64,000 nt of DNA from a bacterium (GTDB taxonomy: Bacteria; UBA8248; JACPRG01; G963555815): contig CBDHDG010000003.1 of NCBI GenBank assembly GCA_965261595.1, positions 32,001-96,000 on the forward strand. The letters are read 5' to 3'. Below, in pieces: positions 2,586 to 32,204 of this stretch. The notes under the pieces are model-generated. The model saw nothing but the letters and a program-made list of their open reading frames with translations, was not told the DNA's origin and did no database searches. A program made the translations under genes and the position numbers. The first letter of the stretch is position 1; each line of letters opens with the position of its first letter.

Positions 2586-2859
2586 AGCCAGGGCCGGAAC
2601 GAAGAGGAGGACCCCGCCGGAGGCGGGGTTGGCGCAGCGAGCACGTGTGGGACAATGGGCCATCACGTCGAGAGGGATATTGTTTGTCACTGTCCCGGAC
2701 GCCCTGTGCGGTTCCGGGATTGAGATGCGGGTCTCGGGCGCCGGCCCGGCAAGCGGACTCCTCACCAACTTGCAAGGGGGTAGTCCTATGGATTTGTGGA
2801 CGAGTCCTGAGGACCGGCGCGAGCCCTGCGGGCCGTATGGACAAGTCCGTGGACAACGC

Positions 2860-4230
2860 TTACGCGTTGCCCACCGCGCTGCCCACACTCTCGCCCCTCT
2901 CGCCCACAAGCTCCACAGGACCAACAACAGATGATTCAATTGAGATTCCATTGACCGCTTCGCGGTGTGAACCTGCTGCAGCGCTGGCGTGCTGCGGGTC
3001 GAACAGTGTCTGGTCGCGAAGCATGGCGCAGGCGACATTGAGGAGGCGGTCTGCGACGGAGCGCAGCGAACGGGCGTGGCCGTGGCCTCGGGAGCGAAGC
3101 ACCTGGTACTTGGCTTTGCAGACGAGGTCCTTCTGCATGGCCACGCGTGCCCAATGGTAGGTGGCATTGCGCAGGCGACGATGCGCGGCGCGTCTGAGGG
3201 AGACGCGCATGCTCTTGCCGGAGCGCTTGGTGACGGGCGCCACGCCGCACAAGCAGCGCAGCGCGTGGTAGTCTCGGCGCTGCAGAGCGTCATCGGCCTC
3301 TGCGAACAGCGTGGCGAGGACAACCGTGCCGACTCCGGGCAGAGAACGCAGGATAGCCACGTCACGCTGTTCTTTGTGTTGCCCCGGTTCGGAACTTTCG
3401 TCCGGATCGGGGGCGGCTTCGGCGAGCTGGGTGACGAGCGCCTCGAGACGTGAGTTGGCCTCTGTCAACTGCTGGTTCACGAGCGCAAGCTGCTTCGCAA
3501 TGATGCGGGCGTGGGTCTCGGCGGCGCGTATTGCGCTGGGGTCGATGTCGATGGCGCGCGCGGTAAGCTGGTCGCGGAGCTCCTCGGCGGTGATACGTCG
3601 AACGCGGTGCTTTTTCAGAAGCTTCTCGAGCGTGGAAAGCCGGACGCCGCGCACGGCCGCGGGCGTCGGCACGCGGTTCCAAAGGGCCAGTGCCCAGTGA
3701 ACATTGAAGTCCTCCACGACATTGATGAACTCGGGGTAGTAACGCCAGAGCTGGTCGCACATGCGATTGGACAGGCGCACCCGCTCGCGCGTCAGGCTCT
3801 CGACGATGCGGGACCACTCGCGCAGCTCGACGATTGCGGGAGCCGTTGGTTTGACCCGCAGCAGCCGGTGCGGGTCGGTGCGTAGCGCCGACGCCAGCAC
3901 CAGGGCGTCGCGACGATCGTCCTTCGCCCCGGCGTGCGAGTAACGGTCGCGGAAGCGGTCCAGTTGCCTGGGGTTGATGGAGTGAACGGCGAAGCCGCAT
4001 CCGAGGAGCGTTTCGACCACGGGTCCGCGAGGCGTCTCGATGGCCACGCCGACCTGGTCCGCCGGCGCCTCCTCGGTGCCGGACAGAATCCAGTCCGTCA
4101 ACGCGGCGAAACCGGCGCCGCCGTGGGCGAACGCATGCTCGGCTCGAACGTCGCCGTTCGCGTCGAGGATGCAGGCCTGGTGGATTCGGGACCCCCAATC
4201 GATTCCGACAAACCACTTGAGATCTGCCAA
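2860..4230 (-). CDS. IS110-family recombinase/transposase
   Basis: RuvC-like DEDD motifs (VGIDWG, AIETP, KDDRRDA), LRSLPGVG, and APVTKRSGK with the catalytic Ser. TTG start after AGGGAGGG RBS. Confidence 0.95.
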   Translation of the reverse strand: MADLKWFVGIDWGSRIHQACILDANGDVRAEHAFAHGGAGFAALTDWILSGTEEAPADQVGVAIETPRGPVVETLLGCGFAVHSINPRQLDRFRDRYSHAGAKDDRRDALVLASALRTDPHRLLRVKPTAPAIVELREWSRIVESLTRERVRLSNRMCDQLWRYYPEFINVVEDFNVHWALALWNRVPTPAAVRGVRLSTLEKLLKKHRVRRITAEELRDQLTARAIDIDPSAIRAAETHARIIAKQLALVNQQLTEANSRLEALVTQLAEAAPDPDESSEPGQHKEQRDVAILRSLPGVGTVVLATLFAEADDALQRRDYHALRCLCGVAPVTKRSGKSMRVSLRRAAHRRLRNATYHWARVAMQKDLVCKAKYQVLRSRGHGHARSLRSVADRLLNVACAMLRDQTLFDPQHASAAAGSHREAVNGISIESSVVGPVELVGERGESVGSAVGNA

Positions 4231-4261
4231 TTCGTCTCCCTCCCTAATCTGTGCGATGGTG

Positions 4262-4445
4262 GCTGGGCCTGCCGCGACGCCTGCCGACTCCTGTACTTGG
4301 CGCTCAAGGCGCTAACTCCTCACGGGGCATCCGTCGTGGCAGGACCGCCGGGGCACCTGTCCGCTTGAGGTGCTGATGGCACTGAGCGCGCAAGGGTTGC
4401 TCCCGGCGGCCTGCCCAATTCCGTGCTATTGAAGCGCAGAGTCAC
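4262..4445 (-). ncRNA. IS110 bridge RNA (5' stem-loop, target-binding loop, donor-binding loop); ends approximate
   Basis: Two internal loops closed by stems (4345-4352/4402-4409 and 4268-4279/4332-4343), each with a central hairpin flanked by guides matching the target or donor sequence. Confidence 0.85.
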
Positions 4446-5106
4446 TTATAAGAGGTACAGGAGCGCGCAGCGAGCGCCAGCGAGCGGAGGCGATAGGGAT
4501 AGAAGCGCAAATCGGAGCGGAGCGGAGATTGCAGCGGGGAGCCCGGCCCGAAGGGATCGCCCGAAGACGGCATGGCCCGTCACCGCAACGGACGCGTATC
4601 GACGAGTCGCTCCGCAACCTCGCAGGCGAGATTGCCATCGTGGTAGAGCCTCGACTCGTACGGGCGATGCTCCTCGAGGTAACGGATTGCATTTCGGTTC
4701 TCCTTCCGTGTTGCCGATGCCCGGGGCCCTCTCTCTCCCTCCTCGCGGCGTTCGCCCTCTCTCCCGCTTCACTCTCCCCTCCGTTCCGCCAGAACGGAGG
4801 CCGCCCATGCCGCGCGGCGCGGGCGAGGACCTGCCCATGGCAGGGCAGCGGCGCGCACCGGCAGGCCAGCGGCTTTCCGTGAAGGGCGGCGAGTTCGTCG
4901 AACCCGACCTCGGCGGCGCGAACGCGGCGCCAGAGATCGGCGCGATAGCGCGCGATCACTTCATCGCGCGGTCCGTCCGGGCCGATGCGGAACCGGTTTC
5001 CCCATTGAGAGCGGCGGTCGATCCGCACGGTCCCGCCGTGCTCCGCCTTGCCGTCGAGCGCCGCCCGCAGGGCGGGCGCATGCCTGAGATTGACGATGTG
5101 CGCCAT
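4426..5106 (-). CDS. DUF4326 domain protein (recognisable domain ends near 4810; 3' extension doubtful)
   Basis: Motifs RIDRRSQWGNRFRIG...RDEVIARY and LHGKPLACRCAPLPCHGQVL. The stop codon lies inside the IS110 end. Confidence 0.7.
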   Translation of the reverse strand: MAHIVNLRHAPALRAALDGKAEHGGTVRIDRRSQWGNRFRIGPDGPRDEVIARYRADLWRRVRAAEVGFDELAALHGKPLACRCAPLPCHGQVLARAARHGRPPFWRNGGESEAGERANAARREREGPGHRQHGRRTEMQSVTSRSIARTSRGSTTMAISPARLRSDSSIRVRCGDGPCRLRAIPSGRAPRCNLRSAPICASIPIASARWRSLRAPVPLISDSALQ

Positions 5107-5130: not shown

Positions 5131-6162
5131 TCATCCCTCCCCCGCTCTTCCCTCCCTCTCTCCGACCCGCTGCGGCGCGGGGAACAGGGCGGCGAGCCGA
5201 AGGGCCAGGGCCCGGGGTCCGAGGGTAACGAGGTCGTTGTTGAAGTCGCCGTATTCGGAGACGATGACGTGGGCGGCGACGCCCGCCCGCGCGCAGCGCC
5301 GGGCGAGGCGTTGGGCGGCCCGTTCGCCCTCGGAATCGTTGTCGCGGGCGATGACGAGCCGTTTGAGCCCGCCAGGCGGAGCGAAGGCGCCGAGGCTTCC
5401 GGCCGAGAGCGCGGCCGCCGAAATGACCCCGGGCGCCGCGGTGACGATCGACAGCACCGTCTCGATGCCTTCGCCGACGAGCAGCGAAGCGCCGTCGGCG
5501 GGCCTGCCGAAGCACACGGCGCGTCCGTGGATGCGGCCGAGCGCCTTGCGCGGGGCCGCGACGTCCGCCTTGGCGGGCAAGCGCGAATCGAGCCAGGTGC
5601 GCTGCACGCCGTGGATGGCGCCGTCGTCGCCGGTCACGGCGGCGACCAGCGCCGGAAAACGGCGCAGGGAAGAGCCTTCGCGATAGCGAAGCTCGGGATG
5701 GAAGCGCAATGCCGGGAACCGGCAGCGCGCGAGTCCGCGGGCGTGGAGGTAGGCCTCGGCATGGGTGCCGTCGATGGCGCGGCAACGCCGCCAGAGGCGG
5801 CGGGCCGCTTCTGTTGCGTCGTAGCTCCCGCCCGACGCCGGCGGAGCCGGCAGGGCGAGGAAGGCGCGGGCCTCGGCGAGCGCCGCGCGAAGCGTCGGCG
5901 CGCCCGAGCGATGCCGGACGAGATCGAGCAGGTCCCCGTGCTCTCCGGTGGCCGCGTCGGTCCACTTGCCGGGGACGCCGGGACCGTGCAGGCGGACGAA
6001 GAGCGAGCGGCCGCGAGCGCCTTCGAGATCGCCGGCGACCCAGTACCGGCCCTGCTTTTTGCCCTGGGGCAGGTAACGCCGGCAGACGGCCTCGGCGCGC
6101 GCGCCGAGCGCGGCGGCGATGTCGGCGGCGGGAGATGCGGGACGGGACGATGGGGGCGGCAT
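5131..6162 (-). CDS. TOPRIM-domain primase-like protein (plasmid/ICE type)
   Basis: GAGGAGG RBS. N-terminal GKWTDAATGEHGDLLDL, then AEAYLHARGL, HGVQRTWL, and TOPRIM motifs VGEGIET and IARDND. Confidence 0.85.
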   Translation of the reverse strand: MPPPSSRPASPAADIAAALGARAEAVCRRYLPQGKKQGRYWVAGDLEGARGRSLFVRLHGPGVPGKWTDAATGEHGDLLDLVRHRSGAPTLRAALAEARAFLALPAPPASGGSYDATEAARRLWRRCRAIDGTHAEAYLHARGLARCRFPALRFHPELRYREGSSLRRFPALVAAVTGDDGAIHGVQRTWLDSRLPAKADVAAPRKALGRIHGRAVCFGRPADGASLLVGEGIETVLSIVTAAPGVISAAALSAGSLGAFAPPGGLKRLVIARDNDSEGERAAQRLARRCARAGVAAHVIVSEYGDFNNDLVTLGPRALALRLAALFPAPQRVGEREGRAGEG

Positions 6163-6356
6163 GACGGGCCTCCTCTGGATGAACGGGGAACGCCCGATAC
6201 CGGCCGGCCTCCGCCTCCGGCCGGCGCCGGAGGACGAAGCGCCGCGCGTAGCGCTGGCGCGAGGCCCGAACGGGCGCTGTCTCGGAACGGGCAGCAAGAA
6301 AAAGGGCCGACGCGCGAAGCGCCGGCCCAGGTAGAGGGAGGAAACGGAATGCGCGC

Positions 6357-9331: not shown

Positions 9332-9544
9332 GCCCCGAGCGTCGCCGACGCTGTGTGTCCTACGTGATGGAACGCCACCCTGTTTCCGAACGTCGGGCCT
9401 GCATGGTCCTGGGCCAGTCGCGCACGAGCCAGCGCTACAGTCCGATCATCGTGGAGGAGGCCGGTCCGTTGGCGGCGGTCCCCCGCTCTAGGGTTTTGTT
9501 GGACACTCGATTGATCCATGATTCATGGAGAAAGGGGTGTCGCG

Positions 9545-9931
9545 ATGAACGAACAAAAGCAAGAGGGGGCTTTGGCGGAGGGCGCCCGCAGGGCGAACGG
9601 AGCCAAGGCCCCAGGGCATCGCAGTGAGCGGGGTCGGTTCTCCTGCCAGCGCAAGCGGGAGGCGGTCCTGCGTCTTTTGCGGGGCGAGAGCCTGGAGACG
9701 CTCTGCCGCGAGTTGGGCACGACAGCGGCTCGGCTTTCCGCCTGGCGCGAGGCGTTCCTTCGCGGGGGCGAGGCGGCGCTCAAAGCCCGCCCGGCGGATG
9801 AGCGGGACGAGGAGAACGCCCGGCTCAAGGCCAAGGTGGGCGAACTCACGATGGAGGGCGAGGTCCTGCGGGAGAAGATCGACCGCCTGGAGGCCGGCCG
9901 CCCTTTAGCCGGCAGGAGGTGGAGGCGATGA
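9545..9931 (+). CDS. IS3-family OrfA (HTH)
   Basis: RKREAVLRLLRGESLETLCRELG...LSAWREAF...LKAKVGELTME. Confidence 0.88.
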   Translation: MNEQKQEGALAEGARRANGAKAPGHRSERGRFSCQRKREAVLRLLRGESLETLCRELGTTAARLSAWREAFLRGGEAALKARPADERDEENARLKAKVGELTMEGEVLREKIDRLEAGRPLAGRRWRR

Positions 9932-10836
9932 GTCAGGCCCGCTTCACCTCCACGGGCAGAGCCTACGGCCTGAAGCGGGTGTGCGCCCTTTGGGGCTTGG
10001 CGCGCTCCACGGTCTACGCGCAACGGCGGCGAGAGGCGGTCCCCGTTCATGAACGCCCCACGCCCAATAAGCGCGGCCCTGTGGGCCCGTGCACCGATGC
10101 GGAACTCCTCGGCCACATCCGGCAGGTCCTGGAGGACTCTCCCTTCCATGGCGAGGGCTACCGCAAGGTGTGGGCGAGGCTGCGCTTCGCGGGCATCCGC
10201 ACCAGCAAGGAGCGGGTGCGTCGCCTGATGCGGGAGGCGGGGCTTCAGGCCCCCCACCGGGTGGGCAAACCCCGAGGTCCCAAGGCCCACAACGGGACCA
10301 TCCGCACCGAGCGGCCCGACCGAATGTGGGGCACGGACATGACGACGACGGTGACCACCGAGGAGGGGGTGGCCTCGGTGTTCGTGGCGGTGGATCACTG
10401 CTCGGTGGACTGCGTGGGGATCCATGCGGCCAAGAGCGGCAACCGCTTCGAGGCCCTGGAGCCGATCCGGCAGGGGGTCGCCGAGCGCTTCGCCGGCTTG
10501 GAGGCGGATGTCGCCGAGGGGCTTAAAGTTCGTCACGACCACGGCCCCGCCTATCTGTCCGATGACTTTCAGCGGGAGATCGCCTACCTGGGCATGACCA
10601 GTTCGCCCAGCTTCGTGCGGGCGCCCGAGGGAAATGGCTACTGTGAGTGGTTCATCCGCATCTTGAAGGAGAATCTCCTGTGGGTGCGCTCTTTCGCCAC
10701 CGTAGAGGAACTGCGGTGGGCGCTGCTTGAGTTCAAGAACCTGTACAACCATCATTGGATTCTCGAGGGCTACGGCTACCGAACGCCGGCCCAGGCAAGG
10801 CAGGAAAAACTCGCTCAAGTTGCGGAGGCCGCATGA
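9928..10836 (+). CDS. IS3-family OrfB, DDE integrase core
   Basis: GYRKVWARL, WGTDMT, RHDHGPAY, PEGNGYCE. ATGA overlap with orfA. Confidence 0.92.
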   Translation: MSQARFTSTGRAYGLKRVCALWGLARSTVYAQRRREAVPVHERPTPNKRGPVGPCTDAELLGHIRQVLEDSPFHGEGYRKVWARLRFAGIRTSKERVRRLMREAGLQAPHRVGKPRGPKAHNGTIRTERPDRMWGTDMTTTVTTEEGVASVFVAVDHCSVDCVGIHAAKSGNRFEALEPIRQGVAERFAGLEADVAEGLKVRHDHGPAYLSDDFQREIAYLGMTSSPSFVRAPEGNGYCEWFIRILKENLLWVRSFATVEELRWALLEFKNLYNHHWILEGYGYRTPAQARQEKLAQVAEAA

Positions 10837-11505
10837 GGTCGAATACCCTCACCCGAGTGTCCAATAACCCAGGGGCGGTCCAGCGGCGATCATCCGCTTG
10901 GCTGGTCAGTATGGCCGTTATGGCTATCGCCGGGTGACGGCGTTGCTTCGAGCAGAGGGTTGGCGCGTGAACCACAAGCGGGTGGAACGGATCTGGCGGC
11001 GGGAGGGGCTGAAGGTGCCTAAGAAGCAACCCAGACGGGGACGTCTGTGGCTCAATGATGGTTCCTGTATCCGTCTGAGGCCCTGCTGGCCCCATCATGT
11101 CTGGGCCTATGACTTCGTCCAGGGACGCACGCATGACGGCAAGGCCTTCCGGATGCTGACAGTGCTCGACGAATACACGCGTGAGTGCCTTGCCATCGAG
11201 ATCGGCCGCAAGCTGTGCAGCGACGATGTCCTGCACTGCCTGAGTGCCCTGTTCGCTCGCCATGGAGCGCCGGAGCACATTCGGTCGGATAACGGGCCGG
11301 AGTTTACCGCTCAGGTTGTTCGGGACTGGCTACCGCGAGTCGGGGTGAGAACCCTGTTCATCGAGCCCCGCTCGCCCTGGGAGAACGGCTACAACGAGAG
11401 CTTTAATGGCAAGCTACAAACTCATTAGTGTGTGTTGCTCACGATTGAAGAGCAGTAATTCAGCGATCGTCGTTTCACGATTTGCGATTCACCAAGTGTT
11501 GGTTA

Positions 11506-11709: not shown

Positions 11710-11775
11710 TCCCCCGCTCTAGGGTTTTGTTGGACACTCGATTGATCCATGATTCATGGAGAAAGGGGTGTCGCG

Positions 11776-12162
11776 ATGAACGAACAAAAGCAAGAGGGGG
11801 CTTTGGCGGAGGGCGCCCGCAGGGCGAACGGAGCCAAGGCCCCAGGGCATCGCAGTGAGCGGGGTCGGTTCTCCTGCCAGCGCAAGCGGGAGGCGGTCCT
11901 GCGTCTTTTGCGGGGCGAGAGCCTGGAGACGCTCTGCCGCGAGTTGGGCACGACAGCGGTTCGGCTTTCCGCCTGGCGCGAGGCGTTCCTTCGCGGGGGC
12001 GAGGCGGCGCTCAAAGCCCGCCCGGCGGATGAGCGGGACGAGGAGAACGCCCGGCTCAAGGCCAAGGTGGGCGAACTCACGATGGAGGGCGAGGTCCTGC
12101 GGGAGAAGATCGACCGCCTGGAGGCCGGCCGCCCTTTAGCCGGCAGGAGGTGGAGGCGATGA
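11776..12162 (+). CDS. IS3-family OrfA
   Basis: Copy of 9545-9931 with one Ala>Val change. Confidence 0.88.
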   Translation: MNEQKQEGALAEGARRANGAKAPGHRSERGRFSCQRKREAVLRLLRGESLETLCRELGTTAVRLSAWREAFLRGGEAALKARPADERDEENARLKAKVGELTMEGEVLREKIDRLEAGRPLAGRRWRR

Positions 12163-31886: not shown

Positions 31887-32204
31887 CTTAGATTCCGAAA
31901 GGTGCTTTGTGTTAATCTTGGAAACCTATTTGCGTGGTCTTGTCGTGACAGGTCGTCACGGCTTCTCATGAAATCGGCCTGTTGCCGGAACCATCGTGGG
32001 CGATCAGTGGATTCGCGCATCCGCCGTTCCGGACGGTGCGCTTCATGCGCCGCGGGCTTTCGGAGCCCTCCGCCCCGGCGCGGGTTTTGTCGCGCGGCCC
32101 GCTGATTGAGATCGAATTCTTTGCAACGAGAGGATGAACAGGGGCCGGCCGGGTCGGTGTCCGACTCGGCCGGAGCCAGCTTCCTCGCACCCGTGAGAAA
32201 CCCG

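Follow-up and report, generated by a model that had tools for sequence, protein, structure and literature searches.

The window, i.e. the whole 64,000-nucleotide (nt) stretch analysed here (positions 32,001 to 96,000 of contig CBDHDG010000003.1, assembly GCA_965261595.1), carries on its minus strand an intact insertion sequence (IS) of the IS110 group, which is 1705 bp long when one copy of the core is counted. From sequence comparison it seems likely that this element combines a DEDD/serine recombinase with a bridge RNA from its left end, holding a target-binding and a donor-binding loop, and that it recombines at a CC dinucleotide core. The genome to which the window belongs (7 contigs, 6.17 Mb) has four copies, with an identity of 1703-1704/1707. 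The left end, which is non-coding, is long, with 229 nt between TGTAC and the start codon, and the right end is short, with ~103 nt after the stop codon; the element has a short core repeat at both ends (CC in relatives, TCC in the window) and without terminal inverted repeats or a longer duplication. Read on the minus strand, its ends are TCCTGTAC (from 4462) and GTGAGGAGTC (to 2756), the left junction being TGCGCGC (4469-4463), TC (4462-4461) and CTGTAC (4460-4455), and the right junction GTGAGGAG (2765-2758), TC (2757-2756) and CGCTTG (2755-2750). With the core at positions 8-9 of the target, the parts are as follows:

2757..4459, minus strand: element body, from the first right-donor base (TGTAC) to the last left-donor base (T), 1703 bp.
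4460..4461, minus strand: CC core, left copy (positions 8-9); register taken from relatives, TCC being repeated in the window.
2755..2756, minus strand: CC core, right copy; placed by sequence, empty-site comparison and relatives.
4462..4468, minus strand: left target, positions 1-7, GCGCGCT (T4462 is position 7), in the flank outside the element; register from relatives.
2750..2754, minus strand: right target, positions 10-14, GCTTG, in the flank.

The left end holds strings that match both of the DNAs to be joined. Around a GTGC/GCAC hairpin (4382-4370) lie, on the minus strand, TGCGCGCTC (4392-4384) and CAAGCGGA (4367-4360), and around a GCGC/GCGC hairpin (4312-4299) lie GTGAGGAGTT (4323-4314) and GTACAGGA (4296-4289). 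The guide and flank strings and the GTGC/GCAC hairpin had been listed in an initial annotation made from the letters alone, and all of them were found again on the minus strand, together with TTGCAA in the right end (2775-2770). Since the left guides have the sequence of the top strand, they would pair with the bottom one, and the right guides, being complementary, with the top strand itself; this is the strand logic set out for IS621 in the excerpted text of PMC11208160, in agreement with the two-loop architecture of IS621 type that had been proposed. The guides match GCGCGCT-CC-GCTTG in the flanks and GTGAGGAGT-CC-TGTAC at the joined ends:

4384..4392, minus strand: left target guide UGCGCGCUC, equal to the target top strand at positions 0-8.
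4361..4367, minus strand: right target guide CAAGCGG, reverse complement of CC+GCTTG.
4315..4323, minus strand: left donor guide GUGAGGAGU, equal to the right end at 2765-2757.
4290..4296, minus strand: right donor guide GUACAGG, reverse complement of CC+TGTAC.

A G-U wobble had been expected at the last base of the left donor guide; a U.G pair is indeed possible there, but U4314 faces core position 8 and not the last core base. When the 219-nt left end was shuffled 20,000 times with its dinucleotides preserved, the four guide strings were found singly 38, 192, 14 and 62 times, and two or more of them never occurred together. With its place immediately before the ribosome-binding site, the structured left end could be a leader that controls recombinase translation; that it is only such a leader, with incidental matches to the flanks, is nevertheless hardly credible in view of the empty shuffle count and of the loop sequences, which covary with the flanks across relatives.

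These relatives were taken from 81 loci, 80 of them metagenomic (48-61% identity) and one from a genome (50%); the 69 with at least 250 nt upstream were used. For the RNA alignment 53 relatives and the window were kept; loci whose left end duplicated another or was not located were dropped, as was row L078, which was mis-anchored. The consensus structure from RNAalifold has five helices with 35 pairs in total, and in 20 of these both partners change. A long-range pairing of UGGGC with GCCCA around the two modules was considered as well, but at that place the window is out of line by one column in the alignment. Paired cells made up 97.3% of the alignment, against 90.8% in column shuffles (none of 500 reached the observed value) and 30-43% with slid partners. 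It thus seems, as far as covariation can tell, that the left end encodes a bridge RNA of two modules, and folding the single sequence gives both of the expected modules as well:

4420..4440, minus strand: 5' stem-loop of the predicted bridge RNA, weak in the window copy; from the fold and a homologous stem-loop region in relatives.
4338..4416, minus strand: target-binding module with a long stem, internal loop and hairpin; from fold and covariation (helix 1 with 18 pairs, 10 of them compensatory).
4275..4337, minus strand: donor-binding module with a stem, internal loop and hairpin; from fold and covariation (helices 3-5).

Covariation between guides and flanks, which the initial annotation had put forward as a check, was borne out across the relatives. 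The right junction was located in 45 of the 69 loci, leaving 37 after removal of identical pairs of guide and flank. In 27 of these 37, which hold 20 different guide 5-mers, the right target guide is the exact reverse complement of the five flank bases, and in all 37 at least four of the five agree; set against the flank of a locus with another guide (n = 1258), the mean was 1.96 of 5 and only 1.5% were perfect. On the left, where the junction was found in 61 loci (50 after de-duplication), the guide agrees with positions 2-7 at five or more of the six positions in 33 of 50, compared to 10.3% in the control. By these comparisons of guide and flank, the loop guides covary with their flanks across relatives.

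Three observations weigh against this picture of the RNA. The fold energy of the left end in the window is unexceptional (z = -1.40, with 20 of 200 shuffles folding as well), so that the proposed minus-strand fold did yield its two modules but not a remarkable stability. None of the families in Rfam matches the left-end RNA beyond chance level, all matches lying under the gathering score. Finally, the register of the left guide is not uniform, as two registers are needed (for 30 and 20 of the 50 loci) and 17 of the 50 loci still agree at fewer than five of six positions. The guide thus lies at varying distances from the hairpin within the clade.

The position of the core has to be settled with the relatives as well. 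Since the window repeats TCC at both junctions, its own genome cannot separate a TC from a CC core. In the 61 relatives with a left junction, this reads C|CC|TGTAC in 51, T|CC in 7, A|CC in 1 and C|CT in 2, whereas the right junctions read GAGT-CC-RT: in an unconstrained search downstream of the open reading frame (ORF), an exact left-donor 8-mer was followed by TCC in 38 of 38 cases. Target and donor therefore differ before CC in most relatives and only CC is common to their junctions, which favours CC over TC. On this comparison the crossover core is probably CC, at positions 8-9 and directly 5' of TGTAC. T4462 and T2757 of the window would then most likely be position 7 of target and donor, respectively, each read by a handshake guide:

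4360, minus strand: handshake guide A of the target loop, pairing with left-donor T7 and here also with target T7; A in 69 of 69 relatives.
4289, minus strand: handshake guide A of the donor loop, pairing with target T7 and here also with donor T7; covaries with target position 7.

The nucleotide that follows the right target guide on its 3' side is A in every relative and faces the invariant donor T7, while the one that follows the right donor guide changes with target position 7 (in 61 loci G-C 53 times, G-T 5, A-T 2 and U-A once); the pairing of A with T7 in the donor loop of the window is the one present in two relatives. For IS621 the handshake scheme is given as A81:dT7 and G166:tC7 in the excerpted text of PMC11208158.

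The initial annotation had instead placed the core at TC (4462-4461 and 2757-2756), with the right guides pairing the core via their final A's and without handshake guides. The TCC at both junctions allows for this, and it would make the left target guide perfect over 9 of 9 positions and both right guides over 8 of 8, whereas with CC as core A4383 of the left target guide mismatches core position 9. The latter counts against the CC register. In the relatives the column concerned holds U 44 times, C 18 times, A 5 times and G twice among the 69 loci, although its base faces position 9 only in one of the two registers (30 of 50 de-duplicated loci); with U, C or A in this column, the clade does not maintain Watson-Crick pairing between the left guide and position 9. 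A TC core would moreover leave positions 7-8 mismatched in the 51 of 61 relatives that have C before CC on the left and T on the right, and the window shares homologous donor ends and a homologous donor loop with them. In addition, the A that follows the right target guide does not vary with the target, which fits a handshake guide that reads the invariant donor T. Consequently, the TC core was not upheld and is considered improbable; with CC as the core, A4360 and A4289 take the part of handshake guides.

Two relatives (L030 and L031) have mixed junction cores, with CT on the left and CC on the right, a pair that is absent from the copies of the window's genome; it possibly results from insertion into a site with a core unlike that of the donor.

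With CC as core, the window has the further property that target and donor share T at position 7, both handshake guides being A, so that each guide can pair with its own DNA before exchange and with the other DNA after it. In the excerpts available of the IS621 work (PMC11208158), handshake guides that paired with their own DNA blocked exchange and G166A reduced efficiency. The IS622 preprint (10.1101/2025.05.14.653916, in part) picks sites 'lacking a matching nucleotide at position 7' because a match 'interferes with the handshake', which speaks against an active element with the arrangement proposed here. The position-7 tests in IS621 and IS622 were, however, made without pairing after exchange, and hence are not the same case as the window. 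Tentatively, a bridge system of the CC-core clade with a shared T7 and two A handshake guides may amount to an effective three-nucleotide core, TCC, although the odds are somewhat against it.

The surroundings of the element also bear on its boundaries. All four copies sit at one and the same site of a host repeat that is present 11 times in the genome:

450..6590, minus strand: host repeat, ~4.3 kb without the IS, 11 copies by genome comparison, with the IS between the DUF4326 domain and the SLOG gene.
5131-6297, minus strand: DUF7146/Toprim gene of the host repeat, by domain match.
4426-5106, minus strand: DUF4326 ORF of the host repeat, with the domain at residues 19-95.
1431-2441: YspA/SLOG gene of the host repeat, by domain match.
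C3:332699, C4:34793, C5:27959, C5:1072151, C6:1277053, C7:70855 and C7:1341561, contig positions in the same genome: empty copies of the host repeat.

In the seven empty copies just the two expected bases stand between the left and right flanks, so that exactly 1705 bp are missing, which fixes the element boundaries to within the repeated TCC. Empty sites read TGCGCGC-TAC-GCTTG and filled ones have TCC at both ends; within the 14-mer, empty GCGCGCT-AC-GCTTG and filled GCGCGCT-CC-GCTTG thus differ only at position 8 (A or C). The search for empty sites suggested in the initial annotation was therefore successful in that seven copies lack exactly the element, but they read TGCGCGC-TA-CGCTTG and the string it had predicted occurs 0 times in the genome. 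Through its A at position 8, the empty site disagrees with C4384 in the left guide, with G4361 in the right guide and with the donor core. A vacant perfect 14-mer target does not occur in the genome, and there are 13 sites with one mismatch, all vacant and seven of them the AC alleles. It does weaken the case that no vacant CC-core site was found, so that the pre-insertion sequence had to be deduced.

How the four copies arose is less clear. The element copies differ by ~0.2%, whereas over the nearest 300 nt of flank the window diverges by 3-5% from the copies at C6:1022644 and C6:1547439; a single-nucleotide polymorphism (SNP) is found as close as 38 nt to the left junction, and further out the left flanks fall into two haplotypes. 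The window and the copy at C6:1335627, on the other hand, have the same flanks for ~1.5 kb on the left and ~1.35 kb on the right, and thus point to a segmental duplication. Based on these flanks, the element is taken to have inserted independently two or three times, each time into a CC allele, while the AC alleles were spared. A C located 28 nt right of the site, common to all four filled and one of the seven empty copies, and the long flanks shared with C6:1335627 could also be explained if the four copies came mainly from duplication or homologous exchange between host-repeat copies, the element being perhaps sluggish through its matching position 7, in line with the design rule of the IS622 preprint. 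Given the contrast between IS and flank divergence, the close SNP and the two distal haplotypes, a conversion tract would need to end within tens of bases, and an origin mainly by such exchange is rather unlikely, which leaves independent insertion as the preferred reading.

The host repeat itself is mosaic with insertions and deletions (one of 157 bp removes most of DUF4326 in one copy) and has two left-flank haplotypes. A weak and partial similarity links its Toprim protein to the C-terminal region of TraI (TIGR02760, 65.7 bits against a cut-off of 930). In the DUF4326 ORF the domain is followed by a tail of 130 codons, rich in Arg, Ala and Ser, that extends 36 nt into the IS; the frame of the same tail crosses the vacant site in one empty copy (L005, 2923-3357), and the tail may be non-coding.

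Among the four element copies only five positions vary (4274, 3736, 3321, 3125 and 2879), while the guide loops are invariant. Position 4274, in the basal stem of the donor module, has the other base in two genome copies and in contigs of all four public runs that were compared, and at position 3125 the variant of the window copy is private, the other base being found in all three other copies and in contigs of all four runs. In other public runs the element is present at ~99.8% identity (contig pieces of 1590 and 1601 nt, with three differences each); none of the runs listed with the sequence is an RNA run. One contig in each of two other runs (X5 and X10) skips 2755-4459, i.e. 1705 nt, with three letters that fit either side; the shorter side of these contigs has only 27-29 letters at a likeness threshold of 90 and the core letter is invisible, which makes a CC and an AC empty site indistinguishable. 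With the query used, no relatives were found in 6 other genomes of the window's order and 50 of its class (E<=1e-40, E<=1e-50). Relatives on plasmids are annotated only as 'IS110 family transposase'.

The recombinase agrees with an intact element, as had been claimed from the letters, with matches to PF01548 and PF02371 and a score above the cut-off of NF033542:

2860..4230, minus strand: recombinase gene, 456 aa, with a TTG start behind GGGAGGGAG (4244-4236); from the ORF and matches to domain and family profiles.

PF01548 (DEDD_Tnp_IS110, RuvC-like) matches residues 8-166 (E 2.4e-33) and PF02371 (Tnp domain) residues 292-376 (E 2.8e-17), while the NCBIfam model NF033542, 'IS110 family RNA-guided transposase', gives 166.1 bits (cut-off 140). 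The frame is open in all four genome copies. In an alignment with 29 relatives (57-85% identity) D11, E65, D105, D108 and S337 are invariant and S337-G338 is kept; these catalytic-type residues align with D/E/D/D and ESG of the solved ISCro4 chain, and S337 presumably corresponds to S241 of IS621. The best match in the Protein Data Bank (PDB) is ISCro4 (9t56, E 3.5e-08), followed by the IS621 chain with a phmmer E of 3.4e-07 over the Tnp domain only. As the solved bridge recombinases match only weakly, the protein belongs to a distant branch of the family, its closest relatives (P0003-P0006) being 77-85% identical. Most relatives have 416-435 aa compared to 456 aa here; the ~40 extra C-terminal residues (2860-2990) are found only in the closest ones (456-472 aa).

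A putative promoter assembled across the circle junction is conserved in most of the relatives. In 37 of 42 of them the best sigma-70-like site spanning the junction is the same, with a TTGACN -35 that starts 21 nt before TGTAC, a spacer of 17 nt and a TACCCT -10 in the left end, and the mean junction-promoter score is 7.7 of 12 in the circle compared to 5.8 when integrated (n = 43 loci, window included). The corresponding parts in the window are:

2770..2775, minus strand: -35-like TTGCAA of the right end, at the same place as TTGACN of the relatives and 17 bp upstream of TACCTC (4457-4452) after circularisation.
4445..4450, minus strand: alternative -10 TATAAG, in the circle 17 bp downstream of TTGGTG (2768-2763), counted from the sequence.

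The place of TTGCAA, which had been pointed out in the initial annotation, is therefore that of the relatives' -35, but as a promoter it is weak here. Two scores tell against a switch in this copy, as TTGCAA-17-TACCTC reaches only 6 of 12, and the alternative TGGTGA-16-TATAAG scores 8 of 12 in the circle versus 7 of 12 when integrated. Judging by these scores, the switch between circle and integrated form looks weak in the window copy.

In the mechanism that would fit these results, the element excises as a circle, by which the right-end -35 would be joined to the left-end -10. The bridge RNA transcribed from the circle would bind the recombinase and pair with both DNAs, after which strand exchange would take place at the CC dinucleotide directly 5' of TGTAC, with A4360 and A4289, just 3' of the right guides, acting as handshake guides for position 7. 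In this way the element would have filled every CC-core copy of the host repeat and left vacant the seven copies with A at core position 8. RNA production, circle formation and programmability of the guides are all predicted from architecture and covariation.

As far as the excerpted texts go, the likeness to IS621 (PMC11208160, PMC11208158) is extensive: both elements have DEDD RuvC-like and Tnp domains, a long left end and a short right end, an RNA (predicted in the window) with a 5' stem-loop, a target loop and a donor loop and the same guide strand logic (PMC11208160), as well as a core of two nucleotides, and they may also share a promoter with its -35 and -10 on either side of the circle junction. 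Most of the clade also uses the handshake letters of IS621, A for donor T7 and G for target C7 (PMC11208158). In contrast, the solved IS621 chain has 328 aa versus 456 aa for the recombinase of the window, with distant protein similarity, and the core of IS621 is CT, with T9 recognised and almost invariant (PMC11208158), as opposed to CC. The left guides of the clade, unlike those of IS621, pair weakly with the core (U, C or A facing position 9), and target and donor of the window share position 7. IS622/ISCro4 of Citrobacter rodentium (10.1101/2025.05.14.653916, in the part available; PDB 9t56) likewise has the same architecture, with CT as core instead of CC. Membership of the IS621/IS622 subgroup was rejected, since the core is most likely CC and not CT and the similarity to the PDB chains, confined to the Tnp domain, goes no further than E ~1e-7.

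The IS1111 group shares a DEDD recombinase and a bridge (seek) RNA, but according to the excerpted text of PMC11208160 its RNA lies in a long right end and it has subterminal inverted repeats of 7-17 bp, whereas the window element has a right end of ~103 nt and its RNA in the left end. Membership of this group was rejected for the structured guide RNA in the left end and the right end of ~103 nt. Regarding the choice of site, ISPpu10 and ISPpu9 of Pseudomonas putida are, in the partial descriptions available, IS110 elements found inserted throughout in one intergenic repeat with identical copies; the repeats they target are REP-like or otherwise intergenic, whereas the target in the window is a spacer inside a gene-bearing repeat of 4.3 kb, and the elements are likened by description only. 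Bridge RNAs are predicted for 85.7% of IS110 elements (PMC11208160, in excerpt), and therefore another decodable member is to be expected. The element is most likely an IS110-group bridge system, i.e. of a known class, from a clade resolved with a CC rather than a CT core.

Elsewhere in the window lies an IS3-family element (9479-10882, and also 1-62 and 11710-12000), with orfB at 9919-10836 on the plus strand that scores 158 bits with NF033516, just below the cut-off of 160. It is present in 178 full-length copies of at least 99% identity on all seven contigs, which is a massive recent expansion. Among the relatives of the IS110-group element, the sub-lineage L023-L031 has the left flank GGTTCGAATCC, a classic tRNA T-arm motif, and the left guide CGAAUCCC. 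ARAGORN reported no tRNA genes in the loci of seven relatives with this flank, which could be a split gene or a tRNA-like repeat.

The element would be a natural case of a matching position 7, contrary to present design practice, and its genome has filled CC and vacant AC sites that are one core base apart. The CC clade, the matching position 7 and the CC/AC sites each allow a simple assay of the rules for core and handshake beyond IS621 and IS622. If the three flank backgrounds represent independent insertions, the rule from IS621 and IS622 that a matching position 7 blocks recombination would not be general. Likewise, four filled CC versus seven vacant AC sites would, if true, be a natural record of single-base discrimination at the core, and a clade that requires C instead of T at position 9 would widen the range of cores open to programming.

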